DNA of 64,000 nucleotides from a virus. Its lineage: Duplodnaviria; Heunggongvirae; Uroviricota; Caudoviricetes. The translations under genes and the position numbers were made by a program. Where the stretch lies: IMG/VR virus record IMGVR_UViG_2778261638_000005, positions 6,684 to 70,683 of that record. One strand, written 5' to 3'. Below are positions 493 to 55,767 of this stretch, piece by piece. Positions within the stretch are counted from its first letter, which is position 1, and each line of letters begins with the position of its first letter. The notes below the pieces were generated by a model. It was not told the origin of the DNA, ran no database searches, and worked only from the letters and a program-made list of their open reading frames with translations.

Positions 493-3006
493 TCATTGCG
501 GAATATCTCCGGAGAATCTCTGACGCTTCTGTGTCAGATTAAGAACAACGGGAGAACCATCATCTTTCAGCAGATAACCAGTACCAAGTTTCACCAGGTA
601 CTGACTATCGCCGTAACTTTGCAAACCATACTGACCAGGCGGTGTTTTTATCCCGGTGCCGACAACTTGTTCATTCCAAGCCTGATTAACCTGCTTATCG
701 AATTGCTCTGCAGACATTCCCCACGGCAAAAGGACATTCCCCATTCCGTTATAGTCATGCACGCCACCTGTAGCTACGTTAACAGCCTGTTTCCAGATAT
801 CAGTGTCAATTTCGCCTGATATCACGCCTTTTTTCGCCATCACACCAGCGTAATAGTCCTTTGCGATCTCGTATGCCATTGATGCCCCCTGAGCATCACC
901 AGCAAATGCATCCTTCACCATGTCAGAAAACTCAAGGCGAAGATCAGCATCTTTAGGCATCGGAATACCTTTCGCATCATCAGTACCTTTACGAGCCGCC
1001 GCGCCAGCAAGAATTGTCTGCGCAGCGGTTTCAGGAGACACGGAAACATCCGGATTAAACCAGTTTGTTTCTGCCAAAATACCACCAGGCTTGTCCATCA
1101 GTATCCCGGCAACGGCAGCAGATGGAGCGTTGGCACTGATCTGCTGTAGTGCTGACATATACACCTGCCCACCACCAGTGCTCTGCCTGATGGTATCGAG
1201 ATATGCTGCCTGTTGGGAAACTGGAGCATCACGAAAGAAAACACCGATCTGATTGGCCTCGTCTTTGGAAAAGAACGTCAGTGGAGTGCCATATGACTTA
1301 GCAAGGTCACTGATCTGAGCGGCACGCAAGGCAACGCTCTGTCCAAAGTTATCCTTATTGCTCATGTCGATAGGCTTTGCCTGTCCGGAGGCAAGAGAGA
1401 ACTGCACAGGATCCGACTGCCGCTGCTTTATCACCTGATTTGCAGCCGAAACAACGTTGTCATAAAGAGCTGCGCGAGACGCATAACCCTCTCCTGTCTC
1501 ACCAGTATCCGGGCGTAATTGCTCAACATATGCGGTAATGCTGCTTGTCGGCATGTTGCGGAAAGAGCCTATATACTGTCCGGCGATCTGCGTATTTCTG
1601 AACTCGGTATATCGCAGGTTTCCTTCTCTGACGCCATAAGCTGCAATAAAATCATCCTCACCAGGTGGGTTAGGAAATTCAACGCCACGCATATACGCAG
1701 CCGTCGCATCGCGAACCTTGCTGTCAATTATCGTTTTATATTCAGCCTGCTGCTGCCGACGCAGTTGATCCGCCTGTCGCATAAAACTTGCCTGAGCCTC
1801 AGGAGATGCCGCATCGAATGCTGCATTACCGGTATAGCGTTTGGTGTTGGTTGGAATTGTTGATAAACCAAGTGCTGCACTGACACCAGCAGTTAACTGC
1901 TGATCACTGTATGGCTGGCTACCGTTCTCATGATGGATAATGGCTGCACAAAGCGCCTTCAGGGTATCAGGATTAGATGCATCGAGAGGATCATCAGCAG
2001 AAACGCCAAGTTGTTCGCACACTGCTTTGATATACGACATAGTATCATTTTTATCAGTAGGCGGTGCCCAGCGATTAATTATCTCGCTGACGGTATCAAT
2101 ACCCTGCCTCTGATACGACATCAGGTTTCGCCCTAATGCACGAATCCCGTGTTCAGGTGTTTCGAATTTAGCAAATCGACCATCATCACCGGTCTGGCCT
2201 ACCCACGGATTAGTTTTGCTGTATTCGAGATTTCCTGGGTTATTGTTGCGTATGCCACGGGCACGCTCGGAAGAGTCACTATCTGCTACAGCACGGCGAG
2301 CTCCAGCAGCAGTATCACTTAACTCGCCATTATTTTGGATGAATGCGGTCGCATTGTTTGCCGACCACTGGGACAATGCGGCATCAGCAACCTTCTCTTT
2401 AAACTCGATTTTCTTGGCCTGGATTTGCTCGTCGCTCCAGCCATGCGCAATGCCGTAATCCTCAATTTGCTGGAAAGTTTGCTTATTAGCCAATACATAT
2501 GCGGCATTGTCGCCATACAATGCTGCGGCATTTTTACCATTATTCAGCAGCGTCGCCTGAAACTGACCTTCTTCGTAGGCATTAATTTGCCCTATCTCGT
2601 GCCGCCCGGCCTGCGTAGTGAACTGAATGCGCTGCTGCTGCGCCTGCTGCATGAAAGCATTACGAGTCTGTTCATCCGGCAGCGACATAGCCAGTTGCTC
2701 GACCTGGGCATCAAACTGCTGCGTATACTCCTGACCTTTTCCAATAGCATTTTTCCCTTTCAGGTTAAGCAAACCTGTTTCAGGGTTATTCAGCAGATCG
2801 CTGCTTATCTGGCTTAAGCTAAGAGAAGCATCCTGAGCCATAGCAACATTCGCACGCTGTTTTGCCTGCGCAATAATACCTGCATATTGCTCTGCAACAT
2901 CGCCAAGTACATCACCGACATTTGGTGTCTGAAACGATGAGAATCCCTGCGTCGAAATCCCTCTGCTCTGAACCTGACGGCCCGATGTTGTTGGTACAAC
3001 TGGCAT
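493..3006 (-). CDS. large internal virion / ejection-type protein with possible muralytic motif
   Basis: 837 aa, Gln/Ala-rich; central NNNPGNLEY...GIRALG motif; distal position in a podovirus-like structural module. Confidence 0.45.
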   Translation of the reverse strand: MPVVPTTSGRQVQSRGISTQGFSSFQTPNVGDVLGDVAEQYAGIIAQAKQRANVAMAQDASLSLSQISSDLLNNPETGLLNLKGKNAIGKGQEYTQQFDAQVEQLAMSLPDEQTRNAFMQQAQQQRIQFTTQAGRHEIGQINAYEEGQFQATLLNNGKNAAALYGDNAAYVLANKQTFQQIEDYGIAHGWSDEQIQAKKIEFKEKVADAALSQWSANNATAFIQNNGELSDTAAGARRAVADSDSSERARGIRNNNPGNLEYSKTNPWVGQTGDDGRFAKFETPEHGIRALGRNLMSYQRQGIDTVSEIINRWAPPTDKNDTMSYIKAVCEQLGVSADDPLDASNPDTLKALCAAIIHHENGSQPYSDQQLTAGVSAALGLSTIPTNTKRYTGNAAFDAASPEAQASFMRQADQLRRQQQAEYKTIIDSKVRDATAAYMRGVEFPNPPGEDDFIAAYGVREGNLRYTEFRNTQIAGQYIGSFRNMPTSSITAYVEQLRPDTGETGEGYASRAALYDNVVSAANQVIKQRQSDPVQFSLASGQAKPIDMSNKDNFGQSVALRAAQISDLAKSYGTPLTFFSKDEANQIGVFFRDAPVSQQAAYLDTIRQSTGGGQVYMSALQQISANAPSAAVAGILMDKPGGILAETNWFNPDVSVSPETAAQTILAGAAARKGTDDAKGIPMPKDADLRLEFSDMVKDAFAGDAQGASMAYEIAKDYYAGVMAKKGVISGEIDTDIWKQAVNVATGGVHDYNGMGNVLLPWGMSAEQFDKQVNQAWNEQVVGTGIKTPPGQYGLQSYGDSQYLVKLGTGYLLKDDGSPVVLNLTQKRQRFSGDIPQ

Positions 3007-6493: not shown

Positions 6494-7098
6494 CAGGACA
6501 ACCTCGCAATGGTAAACTCATCAACCGGTGGCTGTGGTTCCTGTGATTCATTCTGGCTATGCGAGCCAGCACTAAGAATCACGCGATTGTACATATTGAG
6601 GGCAAACGTACCGAGGTCTGCATTCCCAGTCAGCGCCATGTTAATAGCTGCCGCAAGACGCCAGGCCAACGCCTCCATAAAAATGGCATCAAACATGTTC
6701 ACATCTGTAACGCGAGAGACATACTTGAGCCATGCCTGAGGCTGGTCTGTGTAGATCAACTTTCCTGTTCCGTTGGTGTCTGCACCAACTTCGTACTGAA
6801 CGCGCATTGCTGCTGTTGGATTGCGTACACCAGGAAGCATAATTTCAGTAATGCGCAGACAATCGGACGGGTACTGATACGCATATTCCCAGTCAGGCGG
6901 TGGATTGCTCGTATCTGCAAGCGACACGCGTTTGGTAGCAAAGTTCCAGTCAAAATCAGAAAGCACAGCATCACGGCAGGCCTCAAAGTGCAGCGAACAT
7001 TCCCCCGCTTCCTTGCTGGCTTCCGTCAGGCTGTTAATGCTGCGGCTATTGCCAATATTGGACAGCGCACGATTGCAGATCTCTACTACAGAGGCCAT
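6493..7098 (-). CDS. tail tubular protein A-like (adaptor) protein
   Basis: 201 aa; N-terminal LSNIG...SL pattern recalls T7 gp11; follows the capsid genes. Confidence 0.4.
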   Translation of the reverse strand: MASVVEICNRALSNIGNSRSINSLTEASKEAGECSLHFEACRDAVLSDFDWNFATKRVSLADTSNPPPDWEYAYQYPSDCLRITEIMLPGVRNPTAAMRVQYEVGADTNGTGKLIYTDQPQAWLKYVSRVTDVNMFDAIFMEALAWRLAAAINMALTGNADLGTFALNMYNRVILSAGSHSQNESQEPQPPVDEFTIARLS

Positions 7099-7817: not shown

Positions 7818-8255
7818 TTAACCAGTTACTTTTGAGCGGATCGGATACGGCGTATTGGCATCAACATCAAGACTGATACCAGCAGTGAATTCGCCAGCCG
7901 TTAGTGGGCCAGTTGCGACGGAGTAGTTAACACGCAGATATCGCTTAACACCGGCAGGCACCTTTGCAGAAACAATTCGTTTACCTGCTGTCAGGGCGGT
8001 CTTTGCCAGTGCGCCACTATCATAAATAGTGGTCCATGAGCTGTTATTCTCACTCGTCTGCAACTGGATGTTTACAGTTGCATCACCGCTTGCCGCGGCG
8101 GCTGTGTTAACCAGCGCCCAAAACTCAAGCGGGTAACCCACGCCGATATCACGATGTTTTCCGTCAATTGGACCGAGATCGATTACGTCAGTAGAAGCCG
8201 CGGTATTCGTAACCGCCTGAGCTTCGGAGAACATCAACAGTTTGTCGGTGATCAT
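7818..8255 (-). CDS. putative head decoration / accessory capsid protein
   Basis: 145 aa, Thr/Ala/Ser-rich beta-type composition, immediately downstream of major capsid gene. Confidence 0.3.
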   Translation of the reverse strand: MITDKLLMFSEAQAVTNTAASTDVIDLGPIDGKHRDIGVGYPLEFWALVNTAAAASGDATVNIQLQTSENNSSWTTIYDSGALAKTALTAGKRIVSAKVPAGVKRYLRVNYSVATGPLTAGEFTAGISLDVDANTPYPIRSKVTG

Positions 8256-45963: not shown

Positions 45964-46174
45964 GGTATTTTTCTCTGTAGCGCCGGCAATGGTGGATAAT
46001 TTCTGGCATATCAACGGACTGCCAGCCTTTCATGTAATAGCTCCCGTGGGTGCCATCGTGCCCTGTGTAATCCATTGGCTTTGGTGGCGGGCCTCCGGCC
46101 TCCCGATGTAATACCTCCTGTTGTAAACGTTCGCGCCTGCCGAACTGAAAGGACGCATCCCACCCTTTACCCAT
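45944..46174 (-). CDS. hypothetical small protein
   Basis: Probable start MGKGWD at 46174, ATG overlapping upstream stop (ATGGGTAA). Confidence 0.4.
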   Translation of the reverse strand: MGKGWDASFQFGRRERLQQEVLHREAGGPPPKPMDYTGHDGTHGSYYMKGWQSVDMPEIIHHCRRYREKYHVQKIQ

Positions 46175-46727
46175 GCAGAACCTCCCGACAGGCGCTGGCG
46201 AGCAGATCCAGACGGTTAAACCAGCCATTCAGATATTTCCCCTGCGAGGCACTGGATTTGATAATCCCTGCGTAATAGCGGGAACGACGCAGGAAGCACT
46301 GCAACAGCAGCCAGTCAGTATCGGCACGCAGAACGGCTGCGCGTGTGTTTTTACCGACGATGCCATCATCATCAACACCTGCTGCCGCCTGGAGGATCTG
46401 AATCGCGCGTTTAACACCGAGCTGAACGGCAGCATCAAAAACGAATAAGGAAACGCCATCAGGCCATTCGTTACACTTTGCCGCCAGCCAGTAATCACGC
46501 CAGTAGATCTGCGCCGCCTGCTCGCGGGTTAAATCCTTAATGCGGGTATCAGGTTTTCCGTCACCGTTAACATCGGTTTTGCCATCAATAACGCCGTCGC
46601 GACGGTCAGAGATACCGTATTTCGTTTCGCCGCCACGGTCAGTGGGATCATCAACATATCCACCTTCAACATCAGGTCGTATAACGAAATTCAGCGAATG
46701 AAGGAATGCAGGGGAAAACTCAGGCAT
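46167..46727 (-). CDS. GH108-type muramidase with peptidoglycan-binding domain
   Basis: 186 aa; GYVDDPTDRGGETKYGIS motif characteristic of glycoside hydrolase family 108; C-terminal PG-binding-like region. Confidence 0.65.
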   Translation of the reverse strand: MPEFSPAFLHSLNFVIRPDVEGGYVDDPTDRGGETKYGISDRRDGVIDGKTDVNGDGKPDTRIKDLTREQAAQIYWRDYWLAAKCNEWPDGVSLFVFDAAVQLGVKRAIQILQAAAGVDDDGIVGKNTRAAVLRADTDWLLLQCFLRRSRYYAGIIKSSASQGKYLNGWFNRLDLLASACREVLHG

Positions 46728-46809: not shown

Positions 46810-47199
46810 TTACAGAAGTGAAGGCTGGTACTGGCGGTATTTCAGCCGTCGCATCCGGCGAATGGCCTTGTAAACCGTATTGAAAGTGACACCATAACGG
46901 GTGGTCAGTTCGCTGACGTTGCGACCGTTAAAATCATTCCAGATACGCAAATCCCGAATCAGCGAGTCCAGAACCTGACCGCGCGGAATGTAGACCTGAC
47001 CGCCCCCCAGATGCTTACAGATAGCCACAACAATCTCCAGTGAATGAGCAGGATCAACACCCAGCCGGGACAATTCCCCGCGCAGTAAATCGTTCAGCTC
47101 CGCCAGCAGTGCCGGAAAGCGTGACGTATCCTCTGCGGGATTGTCAAGATGTGCCAGGATGGTGTCATCCTGCAAATCACCAAATAAATCTTCCGTCAT
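46810..47199 (-). CDS. mor: middle operon regulator Mor
   Basis: 129 aa Mor/C family; upstream of C and lysis genes. Confidence 0.8.
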   Translation of the reverse strand: MTEDLFGDLQDDTILAHLDNPAEDTSRFPALLAELNDLLRGELSRLGVDPAHSLEIVVAICKHLGGGQVYIPRGQVLDSLIRDLRIWNDFNGRNVSELTTRYGVTFNTVYKAIRRMRRLKYRQYQPSLL

Positions 47200-47747
47200 T
47201 GTGCCATCCTCCGCGTCTTTCTGGCATGGGCATAAGCCGCCGTCATGGCATCATAGCCGCGCAGTTCACGACCGGACGGACTGACCGGCAATGGAAGCCC
47301 GTGACGGGAAAAGGCTTCACGAATACAGCGGATGTGCCACTGCTTGAGTGTTTCGAGGACTGTCAGCAGCGTGTCGCCATGACACCACGCCAGTGTGGAA
47401 ACGCCCTGTCCGCCGTTGCGTTTCGCGGTCAGGCGTTGAACATATCTGTCCAGCGCCACATCACCGCCATCGGTAATAAAACCGTCTTCTGCCATCTGCT
47501 GCCAGATTTTATACACCTTCTCGCGGGGTGTGACATGCCCCTTAAACCGACGGCGTGGGTGTTTATTCTGCTTCTTAAAGCCGCGTTCTTTCATGGCATC
47601 GAGCACCTGTTTCAGTTGCGTAACCGTAAGCTCGCGGCAACTGATTTTGCCCGTTTTCTGCATCAGAAAAGCGCGGTAAGTGTCGTCGTCGAGTTGTAGA
47701 TCACGACGGGCGACATGAATTAATTTAATCAGGGATGTGCGACTCAT
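47196..47747 (-). CDS. Mu gp16-like protein (DUF1018-type)
   Basis: Probable start MSRTSLIKLIHVARRDL at 47747 with GGAGG RBS; track ORF extends further upstream. Confidence 0.65.
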   Translation of the reverse strand: MSRTSLIKLIHVARRDLQLDDDTYRAFLMQKTGKISCRELTVTQLKQVLDAMKERGFKKQNKHPRRRFKGHVTPREKVYKIWQQMAEDGFITDGGDVALDRYVQRLTAKRNGGQGVSTLAWCHGDTLLTVLETLKQWHIRCIREAFSRHGLPLPVSPSGRELRGYDAMTAAYAHARKTRRMAQ

Positions 47748-47820
47748 GATCGTACCTCCGGAAAGGGGGCGGTGCTGCAACACCGCCTGTACTATTGATA
47801 ACACTGAAAATGGAGACAAC

Positions 47821-48060
47821 ATGTCTGTAGAAAACAATGCGTCAATCACTTTTAACCTGGTTTCAGGTCTGATGGTGAAACTTGTTCGTAACAAGATTCT
47901 GACAAAGTGGGAAGCTCAATCCATACTGGCCTCTGCAATTCTTGAAAACGTTCAGAACCAGGAGGGGGTTACTGATTCGGATCTTGATGCACTTCGTCTG
48001 AAACTTGCTATGTCGGATTTCAGCGTTGAAAAAGAGCCTCCACAAGACGATCAGGCGTAA
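47821..48060 (+). CDS. hypothetical protein, opposite-strand gene inside Mu early region
   Basis: 79 aa from ATG 47821 with GGAG RBS 5 nt upstream; fills the only gap in the minus-strand early gene array. Confidence 0.4.
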   Translation: MSVENNASITFNLVSGLMVKLVRNKILTKWEAQSILASAILENVQNQEGVTDSDLDALRLKLAMSDFSVEKEPPQDDQA

Positions 48061-48316
48061 TCACGTCTGATGGTTTAAGTCCCAGCCTGCGGCGAATAAA
48101 TGCGTCGCGGGCTTTTTTGTTATCCAGTGAAACTTCATCTGCAATAATATTAATTTCATGCTGGATAATATTCACAGTAACACGAGCAGAAAGCCCTTCA
48201 CGGATAGCAATATCAATAATATCGCGCATACGCTCAAGCATTTTAGCTTTCACCAGTTCTTCATCCAGGTCTTTAGGCGTAAATTTAGTTTCATTATTCA
48301 TATTATTCACCTTCAC
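48020..48316 (-). CDS. hypothetical early protein
   Basis: 98 aa ORF. Confidence 0.45.
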   Translation of the reverse strand: MKVNNMNNETKFTPKDLDEELVKAKMLERMRDIIDIAIREGLSARVTVNIIQHEINIIADEVSLDNKKARDAFIRRRLGLKPSDVITPDRLVEALFQR

Positions 48317-48485
48317 AATTCATGCACGCCGTGTCATCGCCCATATCGCAGTGGTTGCATTTCAGCCCGCCACAATGAGGGCACTCTTTCAGATATTCAG
48401 GGGCTTCATTACCGCAGGTCGGACATGCCTGTTTCACCGTGGTAAATTTCCCCAGCCACGAATACGATGTTTCATTGTTTTCCAT
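48303..48485 (-). CDS. small zinc-ribbon protein
   Basis: 60 aa with CPTCG...CPHCG...CNHC...CMNC. Confidence 0.45.
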   Translation of the reverse strand: MENNETSYSWLGKFTTVKQACPTCGNEAPEYLKECPHCGGLKCNHCDMGDDTACMNCEGE

Positions 48486-49023
48486 TGTTTACCCCCGCCT
48501 GTTCCAGTGCCATAACTGGTGCGTCAGAACAGTCAAGAATGAGATAGCGCAGTACATGGTCGGTGATATTCCATGCGTTTGAGCTGCAAATAAAACGCCC
48601 TGGCCGGATATCAATATAAGCCATCACAAAACGGGGCATTCCCTGTTCGCACATCCTGTTATCCACTTCTGCAACGATGTGAACGGATTCACAGGTCAGC
48701 ACGCCCGTTGCAAACTCTTTTGCCAGCGCGGGGATGGTATTACCTTCCACCCAGGGTAATGAGCGACGCCAGTTGCACCACACCGCATCATCAACAGCAG
48801 GCTGCTCAGTTGCGTTTCGTCTTACAGGCGGCGTCGGACGTGGGCGCGGAACGTCATAAAATCCGTTGCATTCGGTGAGAACACCGGCATCAACCGCATC
48901 ACGCAGGAAATACACCATTGACGAGGGCAGCATATTCATTTTTTCAGCCAGAACCCCGCAGGTCAGACGCCCGTAAGCCCGTAATAATGTGCTGACACCA
49001 TTCAGAACTTTTGCATCAATCAC
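48472..49023 (-). CDS. hypothetical early protein
   Basis: 183 aa ORF. Confidence 0.45.
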   Translation of the reverse strand: MIDAKVLNGVSTLLRAYGRLTCGVLAEKMNMLPSSMVYFLRDAVDAGVLTECNGFYDVPRPRPTPPVRRNATEQPAVDDAVWCNWRRSLPWVEGNTIPALAKEFATGVLTCESVHIVAEVDNRMCEQGMPRFVMAYIDIRPGRFICSSNAWNITDHVLRYLILDCSDAPVMALEQAGVNNGKQ

Positions 49024-49026
49024 CGG

Positions 49027-49581
49027 TTATTCCTCCGTCAGCGCCACAAATTCAGAATGTTTAATGCGCTGGCATTCGGCGGGAACCGGTCCCTTCACTT
49101 CGCCAGCCAGAAGGTACACCGCAAACAAAATGCTGAATCCGTCACGGCTGTGGTGCATTTTCCACACGGACCTGATGTCAAACAGGTCAACGTCGGTAGC
49201 CACGTTAAGTTCATTGCACAGCCAGCGCGGAAAATCCGGGTTTTTTTCGAGCTGATTTTCACAGTCCCGGATGAGCTTCCCGTACTCACGGCCTGCCGGT
49301 ATTGTCATATCCGGCATTGCGCCCCATAACTGAATATCACCAATGAAAAGTGTCCTTGATTTAATCTCCCATCCTTCCGGTGGTAAGTAGCTAAACCAGA
49401 CATGCGTAACCCTCTCAGGCCCTTTGTCACCAGACAAAGACACACCGATTGCTTTCACTGATTGCTGTAATGACTCAATAATCTCACCACGCTTAACAGA
49501 AACCTCTTTCAGCCAGCGAATCGTATAACCGTTAGCGGCTGTGTCACTCAGTTTAAAATAAGCACATGCTTTCATTTTCAT
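49027..49581 (-). CDS. hypothetical early protein
   Basis: 184 aa ORF. Confidence 0.45.
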   Translation of the reverse strand: MKMKACAYFKLSDTAANGYTIRWLKEVSVKRGEIIESLQQSVKAIGVSLSGDKGPERVTHVWFSYLPPEGWEIKSRTLFIGDIQLWGAMPDMTIPAGREYGKLIRDCENQLEKNPDFPRWLCNELNVATDVDLFDIRSVWKMHHSRDGFSILFAVYLLAGEVKGPVPAECQRIKHSEFVALTEE

Positions 49582-49672: not shown

Positions 49673-50197
49673 TTAAATACCGGCTTCCTGTTCAAACGGA
49701 ATAATGGAAAAATCTTCAATTCCCGATTTAACCGTAATTCCGGCAACACCTGCGACGGCTTTTGGTTCCAGTAAAATCGCCTCCTTGTTGATTTCCTGCT
49801 TCGTGCGAATAAAGCGTTGCAGGCCAAGACGCTCCAGCGTTTCCATCACTGCATCCATACCACGAATACTTACTGATGGTGGACGGACCCGCCACGATAC
49901 ATCACCGGTGACAAGATTCGCCGTCTTCACTTTGCCGCCGTTCGTCAGTTCGTCGCGGTTCGCTTCACACCATCCCTGAACGCCTTTTGAAAGGGTTTCA
50001 ATATCGGTTTTAATCGGTGCAATTCGGGCCGCAAATTTCTCCGTAATTTCCGCGATGGCATCATTCATTTCCGTTTCCAGACGTGATGCTTCGCGCTGTA
50101 AATCCCCGATGCGTTTAATATCGGTAATCACCGCATCGCGGTTTTGTGGCACATAAGCCGCTGCGGCACTCTTGATACGTTTTGCTGGTTTAGCCAT
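49673..50197 (-). CDS. gam: Gam, Ku-like DNA-end-binding host-nuclease inhibitor
   Basis: 174 aa; N-terminus MAKPAKRIKSAAAAYVPQNRDAV matches Mu Gam as recalled. Confidence 0.8.
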   Translation of the reverse strand: MAKPAKRIKSAAAAYVPQNRDAVITDIKRIGDLQREASRLETEMNDAIAEITEKFAARIAPIKTDIETLSKGVQGWCEANRDELTNGGKVKTANLVTGDVSWRVRPPSVSIRGMDAVMETLERLGLQRFIRTKQEINKEAILLEPKAVAGVAGITVKSGIEDFSIIPFEQEAGI

Positions 50198-50956: not shown

Positions 50957-51226
50957 TTAATGTTTAACCACATTCACCGGACGTGGTACTAAATCACATT
51001 CAGCTTCCATACCCACTTTCTTCATAGTGGTCAGCATCTCATCTTTGGCCTTTTTAATAATTTCAGGAGCCATAGTCAGGACTATATTTGCCAGTAAATC
51101 ATGAGGCCCGGTATTTTCCGTTGGCGAGATATCTGCAAGACATGCTTTTGCATCCAGAACTTCTCTGCGCCCATTGCAACTGTCACTACTTTCCAGCCAT
51201 GTAAACTCAAAGATAACCTTTGCCAT
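50957..51226 (-). CDS. hypothetical early protein
   Basis: 89 aa ORF. Confidence 0.4.
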   Translation of the reverse strand: MAKVIFEFTWLESSDSCNGRREVLDAKACLADISPTENTGPHDLLANIVLTMAPEIIKKAKDEMLTTMKKVGMEAECDLVPRPVNVVKH

Positions 51227-51246
51227 TTTTCTTCTCCTTATTGATT

Positions 51247-51492
51247 CTAAATAACTGCGCTGGCTTTTACCTTCGCGCCTTTTACCTGCTTAAAGAAAAC
51301 TGCGCTGCACCACGGACAACATGTCAGGGAATCCCGAATTTCCTTTTCGGGTGAGCATTGCGTCATAATCTGTTCACCGCATCCTGGGCATTTATATGTC
51401 GTCAGCGGCACCCCGTGGCACTGACAGTGTTTAACCCATTCAATATATTTTTCAGCTTTAATACACATCGTTATCTCCAGATAATCTGGCAA
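51247..51492 (-). CDS. small zinc-ribbon protein
   Basis: 81 aa, CQCH...CPGCG...CCPWC. Confidence 0.4.
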
Positions 51493-51698
51493 CCATTAAG
51501 ACGGGCCGTCCATACAGAACGGGCCACCCCGGACTTATGCTCCATAATTCTGACCGCGTTTTTTACCAGTTCCACCGGTGGGTAAGTGATTTCAAGAATC
51601 GGACGCGCCACGCCGAGATATGATTCATTTACATGACTCCCGCGCGCCTGTAACCAGTTCTGCGCATCCGTTGCCATTTTTATATTTCGTGACATCAT
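51471..51698 (-). CDS. small early protein at the Mu kil position
   Basis: 75 aa, first gene downstream of B. Confidence 0.4.
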
Positions 51699-51709
51699 TA
51701 TTTATCCCC

Positions 51710-52642
51710 TTACCACCAGTTCAGTAATTTCGGGTTGCTGTAAACCTCTTTAAAAGCTGCTTTAATGTAGCCTTTGGATAGAGGAACGCCTTTCCCGCTG
51801 GCAGCCAGCCACGCCTGATTCAGCGTATGAGTTAATACACGTAATGCACCTGGTTTTTCCGCGATGCTCTGCATGAGTGATAATTCATCTTCGCCCTCAA
51901 TGCCCCAGGCTTTCGCAATTGCCACCACGTCAGCCTTTTTGGCTTTACGTAGTTGCTTTGTTCTGGCGAAACGACTGAACAAACGTGCAAGGTCATCTGT
52001 TCCCCGGTGTGTGGCTTTGGCTAACTGGTGTGGGTTGCCAATCAATACCATCCCGACGCCGGTTGCATCCTGAATGGCGCGTAACTGCTCCAGCCCGTCC
52101 ATGCTCAGGTGGTCAGCTTCATCCACAATAACCAGACCGCGTGTGCCATTCAGTTTTTTGCGAATGGCGCGGGTCAATGCGCCTTTATTCCTTTGCGGAT
52201 TATCAATTCCCAGCGCGTCTGCCAGCTCCAGCAGACACTCAGTCACTGTTGAGTGTGCAGGGGAAAGGGTCACCATCCAGGTATTAGATACACGGTTACT
52301 GTATTCACGGGCCGCAACGGTTTTACCAACACCCGGCACACCAACCAGAACGCTGATACAGCCCATAACACGCACGGTCTGAAACAGCTCGCGCAAATCA
52401 CGGAGGGTTTGTGTTTCCACAAGTTGTGGTGCGCCAGGTAACTCCAGACTTTTTTGCCAGCTCTGATGCCACATCAGTAATTTGTCATGCATCCCTTCGG
52501 TATCACCTTTGTAACGGCCTTTGCGAAGTTCAGAAAGAGTGGCCTCCGACACCCCCGCTTCTTTAGCAATAGCGCTTTGTGTTTTTACGCCGTCAGTAAT
52601 AAGTGTGTTAATCGTGTTGAAAACATCATTAATATCGGTCAT
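51710..52642 (-). CDS. B: transposition ATPase B (target DNA activator)
   Basis: 310 aa; Walker A GVPGVGKT, Walker B LVIVDEADHL; N-terminal HTH; downstream of transposase. Confidence 0.9.
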   Translation of the reverse strand: MTDINDVFNTINTLITDGVKTQSAIAKEAGVSEATLSELRKGRYKGDTEGMHDKLLMWHQSWQKSLELPGAPQLVETQTLRDLRELFQTVRVMGCISVLVGVPGVGKTVAAREYSNRVSNTWMVTLSPAHSTVTECLLELADALGIDNPQRNKGALTRAIRKKLNGTRGLVIVDEADHLSMDGLEQLRAIQDATGVGMVLIGNPHQLAKATHRGTDDLARLFSRFARTKQLRKAKKADVVAIAKAWGIEGEDELSLMQSIAEKPGALRVLTHTLNQAWLAASGKGVPLSKGYIKAAFKEVYSNPKLLNWW

Positions 52643-52715
52643 ATTATTCTCCGTTTATTCAAATCAGCTTTGTTTCCTTCGTTTAACAGTCCGTTCCCGC
52701 GGACTGTTTTTTTAT

Positions 52716-54803
52716 TCAGGCCAGCGGATCATCCTGTTCCTGTATGGCTACAAGCTTCTGCAAACCCAGCCTGAAATCGCGTTCATAATCTTCGTCGTAA
52801 TCCTCCTCATAATCCTGTTGCTGGATGGTTACCGTATTGCCAACCGGGCGATAAACATTATCCAGCCAGGGTTCAGCCTGTTTGTGCTCCAGTATCTGAA
52901 TGCCTTCATCCTCAGCATCACGAATTTTTTCCTCAGCACGTTTGCGCATTCCTTTAATACGCTGCTGTTGTTTGTGATATTCAGCACTGACAGCAAAGGC
53001 TGCGCGTTTATTGCCGTTCCATATCGCCTCACAGATAAAGCTGCCGTCCTTGCGACGTACCGTAATTCGCTCGGCGTCATGAATGTCATAACTGATAAGT
53101 ACTTTGCGACCGTGTTCGTCACGCAACTCCGGCGCGTAGTAAATATTGTTCAGCCACTGAATTTCGCACCGTCTTACCGGGCGTTCCACCATCGGGCGGA
53201 ACATGTCGCGCAGCTCAAGATCACTCAGCCACTCAATTTCGGTGCCTTCTTCTGCCAGGCGTTTTTTTCTGAACTCTGCCGGGCTGTAATGCCGCCCGTT
53301 CGGTTTCATTGGCAGCTCAGAATGCGGGCGGTTGTTGTACCATTCCACGCCTTCACGAATAGCCTCAATAAGCTCCGCCCACGATGGTAGCTCGCGCATT
53401 GCAGCTTTCTGGCGGTCGTTCAGAGGCTTGTCCTGTTGCATGGCGTTAAACGCTGAACGCAGATCACGGTTAAGTACACGCAACGATTCCCGGTCAGCAC
53501 CCTTGCCAAAATAGGTGCGATACCTCCTGGCTATACGCATCGGCAGTGTCCGGTTCAGGCGTTCAATAATGCCGCGCCCCTGTGGATTACCGGCAATACC
53601 GGTAGGGTGTTTAATCCCCAGGCGGGGCAGAATACCCACGATCTCTTTGTCCAGTATGTCAGCCGTTTCACCAGAACCATTATCCGAGTAATACAGAAAC
53701 GGTTTTCCGTGGTTGCGAATGCCGTGCTGTATCGCACCGGCAACGGCGAACACGTTCTCGGCAAGGTCAAGACTCCAGCCAACAACAAACCGGGTTCCAC
53801 CGTCGATCACAAATGTAACTTCCGGTGAGAATGGACGCCCGTGGATCGGATGTGCACATTTCAGCTTCATACCGTGACCGTCACCAATCCAGACATAATT
53901 CACCGGCATAGCTGTCCAGTCGCGGCGGGTGAATCCTTCAAGCTGACGGTATTCACTGCCGGTAACGCGCCCTTTTTGTTTCACCACTTCCGGCAGTTTT
54001 TTCATGGCATACCGGACAACATCATAGGAAGGCATCACCTCCAGCATGTATGGTTCGTCCGCATGGCGACGCTGCCAATCAGCGACAAAATCCTCATAGG
54101 CTTCAGACATAGGCCTGCCGTTAGCCTGACGATACTGCGCCAGAAATTCAGGCAGCCAGCTAATTTCTTCCGGTTTTATTTCGTCGCGCTTTCCTGGTGC
54201 CAGTAACAGCAGTCGTTCTGCGGCATTCTGTGCTTTGTTAAACGCAGCTATCCAACGTTTGAGCGTAATTGCGCTCAGAGTTCGCTCTTTTCCTTTACGG
54301 GCATTAGCAGTAATGACCAAAGATTCCAGGCGTTCTTCCAGGTTACCCTGCGCTAACCGCGACACAATAAAACGTATAGCGCTGGCACAACTGAATCCCG
54401 GCTCCTGGCTAATTCGTAGAACTTCACAGACAAGAGCAATGCGCGCTTCTGCAACTTTACGTTGATTTTCCGTAAGCGCATTCAGACGCTCTTCTACCAA
54501 TTGTGGCGAACCGCGATATGCCTCAACAGGCTGTACAACATTTTGTTTGCGTTCACGCTTTACAGGAGGCTGGGTAGTTATCTCCCGCGGGGCGCTTGCC
54601 ATCAGTTGAGCTACATGTCGCTCACGTAACGCCCGTTGTGTAACCGGAGGGAGGCAGTCGATGCTGTATTCAATGGTTTTTGAACCCGCACGTTTGCGCC
54701 TGAAATGCTCAGATGAGGCCAGTTTCCTTATGGAATACCGCACCCCTTGCGCAGTTCCCGGCATACCTGGTAACCCTACAAGCTCATTAACTGATACAAA
54801 CAT
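52716..54803 (-). CDS. A: DDE transposase A
   Basis: 695 aa; Mu-A-like catalytic core; N-terminal end-binding domain diverged from Mu A as recalled. Confidence 0.9.
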   Translation of the reverse strand: MFVSVNELVGLPGMPGTAQGVRYSIRKLASSEHFRRKRAGSKTIEYSIDCLPPVTQRALRERHVAQLMASAPREITTQPPVKRERKQNVVQPVEAYRGSPQLVEERLNALTENQRKVAEARIALVCEVLRISQEPGFSCASAIRFIVSRLAQGNLEERLESLVITANARKGKERTLSAITLKRWIAAFNKAQNAAERLLLLAPGKRDEIKPEEISWLPEFLAQYRQANGRPMSEAYEDFVADWQRRHADEPYMLEVMPSYDVVRYAMKKLPEVVKQKGRVTGSEYRQLEGFTRRDWTAMPVNYVWIGDGHGMKLKCAHPIHGRPFSPEVTFVIDGGTRFVVGWSLDLAENVFAVAGAIQHGIRNHGKPFLYYSDNGSGETADILDKEIVGILPRLGIKHPTGIAGNPQGRGIIERLNRTLPMRIARRYRTYFGKGADRESLRVLNRDLRSAFNAMQQDKPLNDRQKAAMRELPSWAELIEAIREGVEWYNNRPHSELPMKPNGRHYSPAEFRKKRLAEEGTEIEWLSDLELRDMFRPMVERPVRRCEIQWLNNIYYAPELRDEHGRKVLISYDIHDAERITVRRKDGSFICEAIWNGNKRAAFAVSAEYHKQQQRIKGMRKRAEEKIRDAEDEGIQILEHKQAEPWLDNVYRPVGNTVTIQQQDYEEDYDEDYERDFRLGLQKLVAIQEQDDPLA

Positions 54804-54805
54804 TT

Positions 54806-55042
54806 TTATGCCACCTTACGAGCGTAACGGCTGGGCCAGATCTCCTCCGGCGCAACACCAATAGCATCAGCAATAATGCGCTCATATTTTGGGCATTTGC
54901 GGTACAGGGCATTCTTTAAAGAATCCTGGTTTAAACCGGCTTCAATGGACAGAGAGCGTAAAGTAAAACCTTTTACATGCACCGCCGCGACAACATGCGC
55001 GGGGTGCCAGTCCTGTTTAACAACTTCATTTATAGACATCAT
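54806..55042 (-). CDS. ner: Ner-like DNA-binding regulator
   Basis: Probable start MMSINEV at 55042 with AAGGA RBS; C-terminal EEIWPSRY matches Ner family. Confidence 0.8.
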   Translation of the reverse strand: MMSINEVVKQDWHPAHVVAAVHVKGFTLRSLSIEAGLNQDSLKNALYRKCPKYERIIADAIGVAPEEIWPSRYARKVA

Positions 55043-55182
55043 TCGTTTATCCTTAAAAGTTATCTGCGCGGATAACACCGCCGGATAATCTCTACAGATA
55101 AATATTTGATCACTACAAAAGAAAAGTAAAGGTGTTTTATCTCTTTCTTTGGTTGTTTTTATCTACAAAAGGATATTTCTTT
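55043..55182. promoter_or_regulatory. divergent early promoter/operator region between ner and c
   Basis: 140-bp AT-rich intergenic region between divergent repressor and ner genes. Confidence 0.5.
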
Positions 55183-55767
55183 ATGAATCATATGGTTAAC
55201 AGAAAAGAAAGAAGCACTGAAAAAGAAAGTGATTTTTCTTTTCCTGTGTTTCAAAAAGAAAGCATTAAAGAGCGCCTAGCCATGCTAATGCGCGGGCGCT
55301 CCAAGACTGCCGTGGCGAAGGCGTGGGGGCTACCGTTCTCAACACTTAACAACTACTTTGAGAAAGATGCGACACCATCTCTACAAGTAGCTAGTCAGAT
55401 TGCTTTTGCAGAAGGGGTGAGCATTGATTGGCTTGTTTTTGGCAAGGAGGATATAGAACCAATATCACCTAAAATAGATGAAAACGTCCAATTGCCCCTA
55501 GATATAACGCTACAGCGCCTTCTTGCTATACTAAGTGCTTTAGAAGCATCAGAGGCAGAGCGATTATCAAAAATCCTCGCGCTAAATGGAGCTAAGTACT
55601 TGTCACGGTTACTTGAACCAGAGAATCAAGAACTAATCCAACTTGAAGGACGAAAACGTGCAGCAGCTCTACTTTTAGATCATTTATCGGATGAAAGAGT
55701 TAGAGAGATTTTGGCAGAAATTGAAAGCGATAAACTCTCAAGTAGTTTAGAATCGAAGGCGGGCTAA
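55183..55767 (+). CDS. Mu-type c repressor
   Basis: 194 aa from ATG 55183 (AAGGA RBS); divergent from ner, reads toward left end. Confidence 0.7.
   Translation: MNHMVNRKERSTEKESDFSFPVFQKESIKERLAMLMRGRSKTAVAKAWGLPFSTLNNYFEKDATPSLQVASQIAFAEGVSIDWLVFGKEDIEPISPKIDENVQLPLDITLQRLLAILSALEASEAERLSKILALNGAKYLSRLLEPENQELIQLEGRKRAAALLLDHLSDERVREILAEIESDKLSSSLESKAG

Follow-up and report, generated by a model that had tools for sequence, protein, structure and literature searches.

A probable opposite-strand gene of the Mu gp15 family in the early operon of a Mu-like prophage

Layout of the gap between gp14 and gemA

The early operon of the Mu-like prophage studied here lies, from ner to mor, on the minus strand of a 64,000-nucleotide stretch of Caudoviricetes DNA (the window; positions 6,684 to 70,683 of IMG/VR record IMGVR_UViG_2778261638_000005). 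It is interrupted between the gp14-family gene and gemA by a gap of 272 bp (47748-48019), and the opposite strand of this gap carries an open reading frame (ORF) for 79 amino acids (aa). An earlier note on the window, made from the letters alone, had described the gap as the only one in the early operon, and the ORF as a plus-strand frame with a GGAG ribosome-binding site and a convergent overlap of 41 bp with the neighbouring gene. All of these features are present in the sequence, and the gap is the sole large one between ner and mor, the remaining intergenic gaps in the ORF table measuring 91 bp or less. We conclude that the ORF is very probably a real protein-coding gene, and comparison identifies it as a local, very divergent allele of gene 15 of phage Mu. 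The features of the locus are as follows.

47821-48060, plus strand: the 79-aa gp15-family ORF, from an ATG at 47821 to a TAA ending at 48060
47812-47815, plus strand: Shine-Dalgarno sequence (SD) GGAG, 5 nt before the ATG of the ORF
48020-48316, minus strand: gp14-family gene, the convergent partner (phrog_6075, E = 4e-36)
47196-47747, minus strand: gemA, the flanking gene (PF06252 in Pfam, E = 1e-31)
47768-47787, no strand assigned: perfect inverted repeat GGCGGTG-CTGCAA-CACCGCC with 7-bp arms, between the ORF and the start of gemA
48084-48123, plus strand: intrinsic-terminator-like hairpin of 11 pairs (8 of them G-C) followed by TTTTTTGTTAT, from the terminator scan
47790 to about 48270, no strand assigned: divergent island comprising gp15 and most of gp14, from sliding identity against Mu and D108

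The 3' ends of the ORF and of gp14, which ends at 48020, converge and overlap by the 41 bp mentioned above. The gp14-family gene encodes 98 aa if it starts at its GTG and 93 aa from an ATG at 48301. For the ORF, an alternative in-frame GTG at 47737 would give a protein of 107 aa, and the family alignment favours the ATG at 47821, from which the protein would be translated with the help of its own GGAG. Purine-rich, SD-like motifs occur at the equivalent position in the Mu, D108, L036 and L045 cassettes (L numbers denote individual loci). The G+C content of the gene is below that of gemA.

Evidence for a protein-coding gene

The length of the ORF is within chance expectation, as 14 kb contain 120 ORFs that reach 40 aa or more. 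It is conservation, not length, that raises it above chance. An identical copy of the 79-aa protein is encoded in 113 contigs, and its context is the same in each. Variants with 89% and 85% aa identity in related prophages keep the 240-nt frame and the 41-bp overlap without any insertion or deletion, at a DNA divergence of 8-11%. Among these window-type variants, the differences are skewed to the third codon position (10 of 20, 14 of 27 and 16 of 32), and the ratio of non-synonymous to synonymous substitution rates (dN/dS, or omega) in the frame of the ORF is 0.29-0.33. Each of the three opposite-strand frames across the ORF contains 2-5 stops.

The same picture emerges between distant members of the family. 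A family hidden Markov model (HMM) was built from 28 members with all window-type sequences excluded and was run against 7,648 six-frame ORFs. It recovers the window ORF with E = 1.4e-8 (33 bits) and no other ORF of the 64-kb window at E ≤ 10; when P0035 is left out of the model, the ORF is still found with E = 4e-7. The gp15 genes of Mu and of the L036 type differ at 33% of their nucleotides and share an intact 267-nt frame, again without insertions or deletions and with omega near 0.37, whereas their antisense frames have omega values of 0.5-1.1 and 3-6 stops.

Relationship to gp15 of Mu and D108

Mu gp15 (Mup15; NP_050619.1; phrog_8747) is a hypothetical protein of 88 aa. In RefSeq NC_000929 its gene lies at complement 7896..8162, between gp14 and gemA (positions 1819-2085, plus strand, in our Mu locus L001). 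The homologue in D108 has 119 aa (phrog_38610; GQ357916.1, complement 7853..8212; L002 1818-2177, plus strand) and is annotated neither in GQ357916 nor in NC_013594, both of which leave an empty gap of 376 bp. The D108 ORF has an SD as well as a downstream hairpin and T-run. The earlier note had proposed a comparison with Mu and D108 at this position and had counted absence or poor conservation in close relatives, together with transcription of the minus strand alone, against the ORF. What we found is an opposite-strand homologue at the same place in both phages and a frame that is kept among the variants.

The window, Mu and D108 proteins are only about 26% identical (about 26-28% between the window and Mu) and have an N-terminal helical core in common. 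A tblastn search of the 79-aa protein against phages gives no match at E ≤ 1; homology was detected through profiles and synteny alone. At the core motif, BLASTP aligns the window protein with the D108 ORF at E = 4e-5, and there is a weak match to phrog_32893 (E = 0.038). The PHROGs 8747, 38610 and 32893, all annotated as of unknown function, match one another, and comparison unites them with the window type in one family. Its members are small helical proteins of about 60-120 aa with the N-terminal core h-x-h-h-x-x-L-h-x-x-L-V-x-K/N-G/K-h-I/L-T-x-x-E/D-A-x-x-I. The window gene has the profile homology, slot, orientation, gp14 partner, size and core motif of this family.

The family is small. 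Searching 1.84 billion representatives with the gp15 profile returned only 30 small proteins. In the 76 loci that we fetched, matches to the family HMM are confined to this slot and to the strand opposite gemA. The more distant loci L082 and L085 have the same slot and orientation as the window; in L088, the gene is also on the opposite strand and adjoins a gp6-like gene instead of gemA. Three distant profile matches (P0036, P0030 and P0024) are on short contigs without a Mu context and may be false positives. Searches of viral contigs with P0019 and P0036 as queries found nothing, and a megablast search of 5,426 complete E. coli genomes matched only the first 42 bases, that is, the inverted repeat and the gemA leader.

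Mu: The window gene resembles Mu gp15 in its slot between gp14 and gemA, its opposite orientation, its overlap with gp14 and the hairpin inside gp14 past the stop. It also shares the SD, an ATG placed immediately beyond the common inverted repeat at about 70 nt from where gemA starts, and the N-terminal helical core. The Mu protein is longer (88 versus 79 aa), and its gene overlaps gp14 by 62 bp instead of 41 bp. The T-run of Mu is GTTTCATTTTG, and that of the window, TTTTTTGTTAT, is much better.

D108: The D108 ORF shares the slot, the orientation, a convergent overlap (53 bp) and a hairpin tail, GGGCTTTTTTGTTAT, that is identical to that of the window. It differs by an acidic N-terminal extension of 26 residues, by another stem sequence and by a net charge of -15 compared with -5.5.

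The current GenBank record of Mu, AF083977.1, places an early-strand ORF, Mu_54 (AAF01092.2), at this locus instead of gp15. Mu_54 occupies Mu 7960..8127 (L001 1854-2021, minus strand). The comparison favours the opposite-strand gp15, because the gp15 frame stays intact with omega 0.37, the L036 type conserves neither the start codon nor the sequence of Mu_54, and the higher omega values given above belong to the antisense frames.

The same record is the starting point for a reading without any plus-strand gene, in which the gap would represent the 'semi-early' promoter of gemA, a short early-strand ORF such as Mu_54, or both. AF083977.1 annotates a promoter at 8151-8217 next to gemA, and chance alone often yields ORFs as long as this one. 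The annotated promoter, however, covers only about 70 bp beside gemA of the 272 bp, the minus-strand frames across the window ORF are broken by stops, Mu_54 lacks conservation, and the plus-strand frame is conserved in nine types. On these sequence comparisons, we regard the absence of a gene as largely refuted and extremely improbable.

The gp14 partner and the hypervariable island

Each gp15-family gene that we examined converges on a gp14-family gene (phrog_6075) with a 3' overlap of 4-98 nt, and the types of the two genes correspond one to one in nine types. The gp14 partners carry the signature K-A-R/H-x-x-h-h-R/C-R-E/R-L-G, which is also present in L085 and L088. As the pair in L088 lies beside a gp6-like gene and not beside gemA, the pairing is with gp14.

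The two genes form an island in an otherwise conserved backbone. In the comparison with Mu, sliding identity drops from about 1.0 to 0.3-0.6 over the stretch from 47790 to about 48270; with D108, this stretch extends to about 48200. The DNA beside the island is 90-100% identical to both phages. Both edges are sharp: one is just past the inverted repeat at 47768-47787, and the other is within gp14, at about 48200-48270. The aa identities to Mu are as follows.

mor: 99%
gemA: 97%
gp13: 95%
gp11: 93%
gp14: 44%
gp15: Mu counterpart undetected by tblastn

By this comparison, gp14 and gp15 are a co-inherited, fast-diverging two-gene module in a conserved Mu backbone.

Of about 46 enterobacterial Mu-like loci, 22 carry a gp15-family member; the remainder show deletions, lack the gap or hold different cargo, and in many Mu-like prophages other early genes are coupled straight to gemA. 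Three loci have lost parts of the region:

L030 (2449-2500): Most of gp15 is lost, and gp14 is retained intact, with 99% identity to Mu.

L014 (2390-2500): Both gp14 and gp15 are deleted, and the first codons of gp15 are fused to the start of gp14.

L052 (2440-2500): The region from gp12 through gp15 is lost.

The module is dispensable, since gp15 is deleted in L030 and both genes are deleted in L014 and L052.

In about 10 loci from SfMu-type prophages (e.g., L018, about 2054-2470, minus strand, and L034, about 2066-2470, minus strand), the slot is filled by an unrelated opposite-strand ORF with weak similarity to DUF2513 (phrog_585). Like gp15, this ORF lies upstream of gemA in the same orientation and converges on the preceding early gene. 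It is larger (134-138 aa), only 31 nt separate its start from the ATG of gemA, and its loci lack the GGCGGTG inverted repeat. As its start is so close to gemA, its promoter must be inside gemA. We considered whether it is a distant homologue of gp15 and rejected this, as hhalign gave a probability of 11% and aligned a motif of 15 residues only.

The co-inheritance could reflect a cognate pair, in which gp15 binds its own gp14, a protein of early lytic growth, and neutralises or regulates the C-terminal domain, for example by buffering leaky expression in the lysogen, so that the two genes co-diversify. Consistent with this, gp15 was never found without a gp14-family partner in the nine types, including L088 with its different neighbour; the 3' ends overlap; and the island edge inside gp14 means that the C-terminal two thirds of gp14 always change with gp15. 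Adjacency and overlap alone, however, would give equal co-inheritance. The intact gp14 of L030, without its gp15, argues against a toxin-antidote dependence, and neither protein matches a toxin-antitoxin or defence family in Pfam, PADLOC or NCBIfam. We consider a cognate pair unlikely. A toxin-antitoxin-like pair was rejected, as these libraries show no recognisable toxin or antitoxin domain and mutual dependence is contradicted by L030.

A strand-specific terminator-like hairpin within gp14

The hairpin at 48084-48123 begins 24 nt past the stop codon of the ORF, inside the coding sequence of gp14 (codons K-K-A-R-D-A-F-I-R-R-R-L-G; KKARDAFIRRRLG). In a 20-kb scan, this site tops the list of terminator-like sites and has the most G-C pairs. 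A hairpin is found at the equivalent position in all 10 representatives, which cover nine types, and the stem sequences vary. Stem positions are paired in 99 of 100 cells on the gp15-sense strand, compared with 82 of 100 on the early strand, and the predicted folding energy (ΔG) is -13.5 to -22.4 on the former and -9.7 to -17.8 on the latter. Much of the stem variation consists of G-U wobbles, which are A-C mismatches in the early-strand RNA. Compensatory changes are seen in two pairs, with the observed covariation score reached by 2 of 500 shuffles, and control alignments in which the hairpin was slid give 38-56% pairing. The T-rich tail (6-8 T in 10) is present on the gp15-sense strand only. 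Of the indirect evidence for what we infer to be real leftward transcription through gp15 (plus strand of the window), stopped at the hairpin, this difference between the strands is the best; early transcription would continue past the site.

A second strong hairpin, of 10 pairs followed by TTTTTTATT, lies at 52685-52708 on the plus strand only, between A and B. It is another leftward-specific terminator-like site within the early operon. Several plus-strand promoter-like sites are found at 51088-52645.

A leftward transcript ending at the hairpin would remain antisense to about 100 nt of the gp14 3' end (48020 to about 48120), followed by the strong terminator. The functional product could then be an antisense RNA that pairs with gp14, with the ORF being incidental. 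Such an RNA would be comparable to oop of phage lambda, a short convergent antisense transcript within the early operon, and the topology is similar to that of oop and cII. The window unit would likewise be a short leftward unit in an early operon that is read rightward, overlapping the upstream gene at its 3' end and stopping at an intrinsic terminator. It differs from oop in that it encodes a conserved protein and has no RNA family match in Rfam. Purifying selection acts on the protein, a family-wide hydrophobic pattern persists at 20-30% identity, the SD is conserved in all types, and the length of the overlap varies (4-98 nt). For these reasons, an antisense RNA as the product is very unlikely, and the antisense regulatory locus that the earlier note had offered as an option is, in the sense of a pure RNA, contradicted by the constraint at the protein level, the conservation across the family and the Rfam result.

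The inverted repeat and the gemA upstream region

The perfect inverted repeat, located 20 nt ahead of the gemA start, is shared by Mu, D108 and every gp15-bearing locus that adjoins gemA, and the 'semi-early promoter' annotated in AF083977.1 (Mu 8151-8217) encloses it. The repeat and the gemA leader are kept in L030, L014 and L052, which have lost gp15. As the repeat is retained when gp15 is deleted and is within the annotated semi-early promoter, we assign it to the expression of gemA rather than to the gp15 cassette. It may form a hairpin at the 5' end of the mRNA or serve as a binding site for a protein. In L045, the loop of the repeat is inverted. Constitutive expression of the gem operon in lysogens has been reported (Paolozzi and Ghelardini 1992, as cited in PMC3820752).

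Upstream of the ORF, a leftward promoter could be accommodated in just one stretch of conserved DNA, the first 100 bp or so of gemA, and the only promoter-like feature conserved in position is a weak AT-rich patch at gemA codons 5-10.

Properties of the gp15 protein

The window gp15 is a soluble, acidic protein (pI 4.4, net charge -5.5). The AlphaFold2 model has three helices (4-23, 29-46 and 52-64) with a confidence (pLDDT) of 72. The model of gp14 is all-helical, with no informative fold match. The homology search and structure prediction that the earlier note had suggested for the 79-aa product thus led to the Mu gp15 family, by HMM, and to a three-helix model, and not to a function. We found no literature on the function of Mu gp15.

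A SHOCT domain (PF09851, PF20612, PF22746) was considered and rejected. Three of 25 family members match SHOCT-like_DUF2089-C below the gathering threshold (best E = 0.0014), and the window protein has no SHOCT match. The likeness is a resemblance only.

Proposed expression and role

We propose that gp15 is transcribed leftward in a short unit of its own that runs counter to the early operon. Its promoter would be weak or non-canonical and located in or adjoining the first 100 bp or so of gemA. The transcript would end at 48084-48123, and hence antisense transcription would not be carried into the early genes. Since the strong early promoter would read head-on through gp15, the protein should be made mainly while the early operon is silent, i.e., in the lysogen and in the first minutes of infection. 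After induction, gp15 would be shut off by transcriptional interference. A weaker suggestion concerns the role of the protein, which may be a dispensable accessory factor in conflicts between phage and host or between phages, or may tune gp14, rather than being part of core replication. This is suggested by the presence/absence polymorphism, the fast divergence and the unrelated opposite-strand gene that replaces gp15 in the slot.

That gp15 is an independent transcription unit is likely on the sequence features described above. A lysogen-biased accessory role is more tentative, and we regard it as somewhat doubtful. The complete proposal of a real gene with its own leftward unit and an accessory role, in which expression and timing are deduced from sequence, is evenly balanced.

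Several results weigh against the proposal. In five cassette types, the 260 nt that precede the ATG contain no sigma-70-like promoter matching at least 8 of 12 positions; the scan of the window found no site at 9 of 12, and the scans of L082 and L088 likewise found no such promoter. The Mu and L036 types have poorer T-runs, and the conservation of the hairpin could come partly from coding constraint, as the site is within a conserved aa motif of gp14. Fold searches with gp15 gave no functional clue. Pfam, NCBIfam and PADLOC had nothing above threshold, no Pfam family covers the gp15 proteins, and the search of PDB sequences with the gp15 profile gave chance-level matches only (best, MotA with E = 0.03 over 23 residues). 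The annotation of Mu_54 in the current Mu record is a further point on this side.

The missing sigma-70 promoter can also be explained if gp15 is transcribed leftward from a phage-dependent promoter and functions in infection or in the lytic cycle, for example in anti-defence or host takeover, instead of being expressed in the lysogen. The lack of a recognisable site fits activator-dependent transcription, and the middle and late promoters of Mu depend on the activators Mor and C. A small acidic protein in a hypervariable island is also typical of anti-defence genes. In lytic growth, however, strong early transcription would run head-on through gp15, no match to known defence or anti-defence families was found, and a check by eye for Mor/C-type sites identified none. 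A check by eye for sigma-54 sites likewise found nothing convincing. We give a lytic-phase role little credence and retain the proposal of a unit that is active mainly when the early operon is silent.

When phage backbones are nearly identical, a hypervariable island is often a sign of genes for immunity, exclusion or anti-defence. In its most speculative form, our proposal would make gp14 and gp15 a hypervariable convergent conflict module. Here, gp15, produced while the early operon is switched off, would counteract or gate its cognate gp14, or the two would be a specificity pair for exclusion or anti-defence, and the terminator in the gp14 codons would insulate the early operon. We consider this improbable.

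Comparison with morons and significance

Morons are extra genes with their own promoter and terminator between the backbone genes of temperate phages (lambdoid/HK97). The window gp15 resembles them in being accessory, in being present or absent between backbone genes, in having a terminator-like hairpin and in its G+C content relative to gemA. It differs in that the scans found no promoter, the coding sequence of the neighbour contains the terminator, and gp15, with its tie to gp14, is an old and family-specific inhabitant of the early regions of Mu-like phages rather than a sporadic insert from elsewhere. The moron reading of the earlier note therefore holds in part: there is a genuine opposite-strand gene with its own SD, a strand-specific terminator-like hairpin and presence/absence variation. 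It does not hold for a foreign one-off insertion, as the gene is an allele of Mu gene 15 in its usual slot and paired with gp14.

Although Mu serves as a model phage, functions have yet to be assigned to most of its semi-essential early region. The databases disagree at this locus, with gp15 on the complement in RefSeq, Mu_54 on the early strand in GenBank and nothing annotated in D108. The analysis goes beyond the current annotation by unifying the family, favouring gp15 over Mu_54, adding the D108 homologue and describing the paired hypervariable module and the strand-specific, coding-embedded terminator-like hairpin. Even if gp15 should prove to be an ordinary gene, Mu, D108 and hundreds of prophages in enterobacteria gain a corrected annotation. 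The result is useful to Mu specialists and is not very surprising unless the pair is a conflict module.

Other features of the early region

The other early genes and the repressor gene of the window are as follows.

55132-55767, plus strand: repressor c
54806-55078, minus strand: ner
52716-54803, minus strand: A
51710-52642, minus strand: B
49673-50197, minus strand: gam
48472-49023, minus strand: gp11-like gene
48303-48485, minus strand: gp13-like gene
46810-47199, minus strand: mor

An endolysin-like gene with GH108 and PG_binding_3 similarity is located at 46167-46727 on the minus strand, between mor and a gp18-like gene. It has no Mu counterpart at this position, and the usual lysozyme of the window lies further on. 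A homologue of gp12 is not present in the window, where the match to Mu gp12 extends over 18 residues only. Between gam and the gp11-like gene there is an ORF of 184 aa (49027-49581) without a match in Mu. The absence of gp12 and the 184-aa ORF are further mosaicism of the semi-essential early region.

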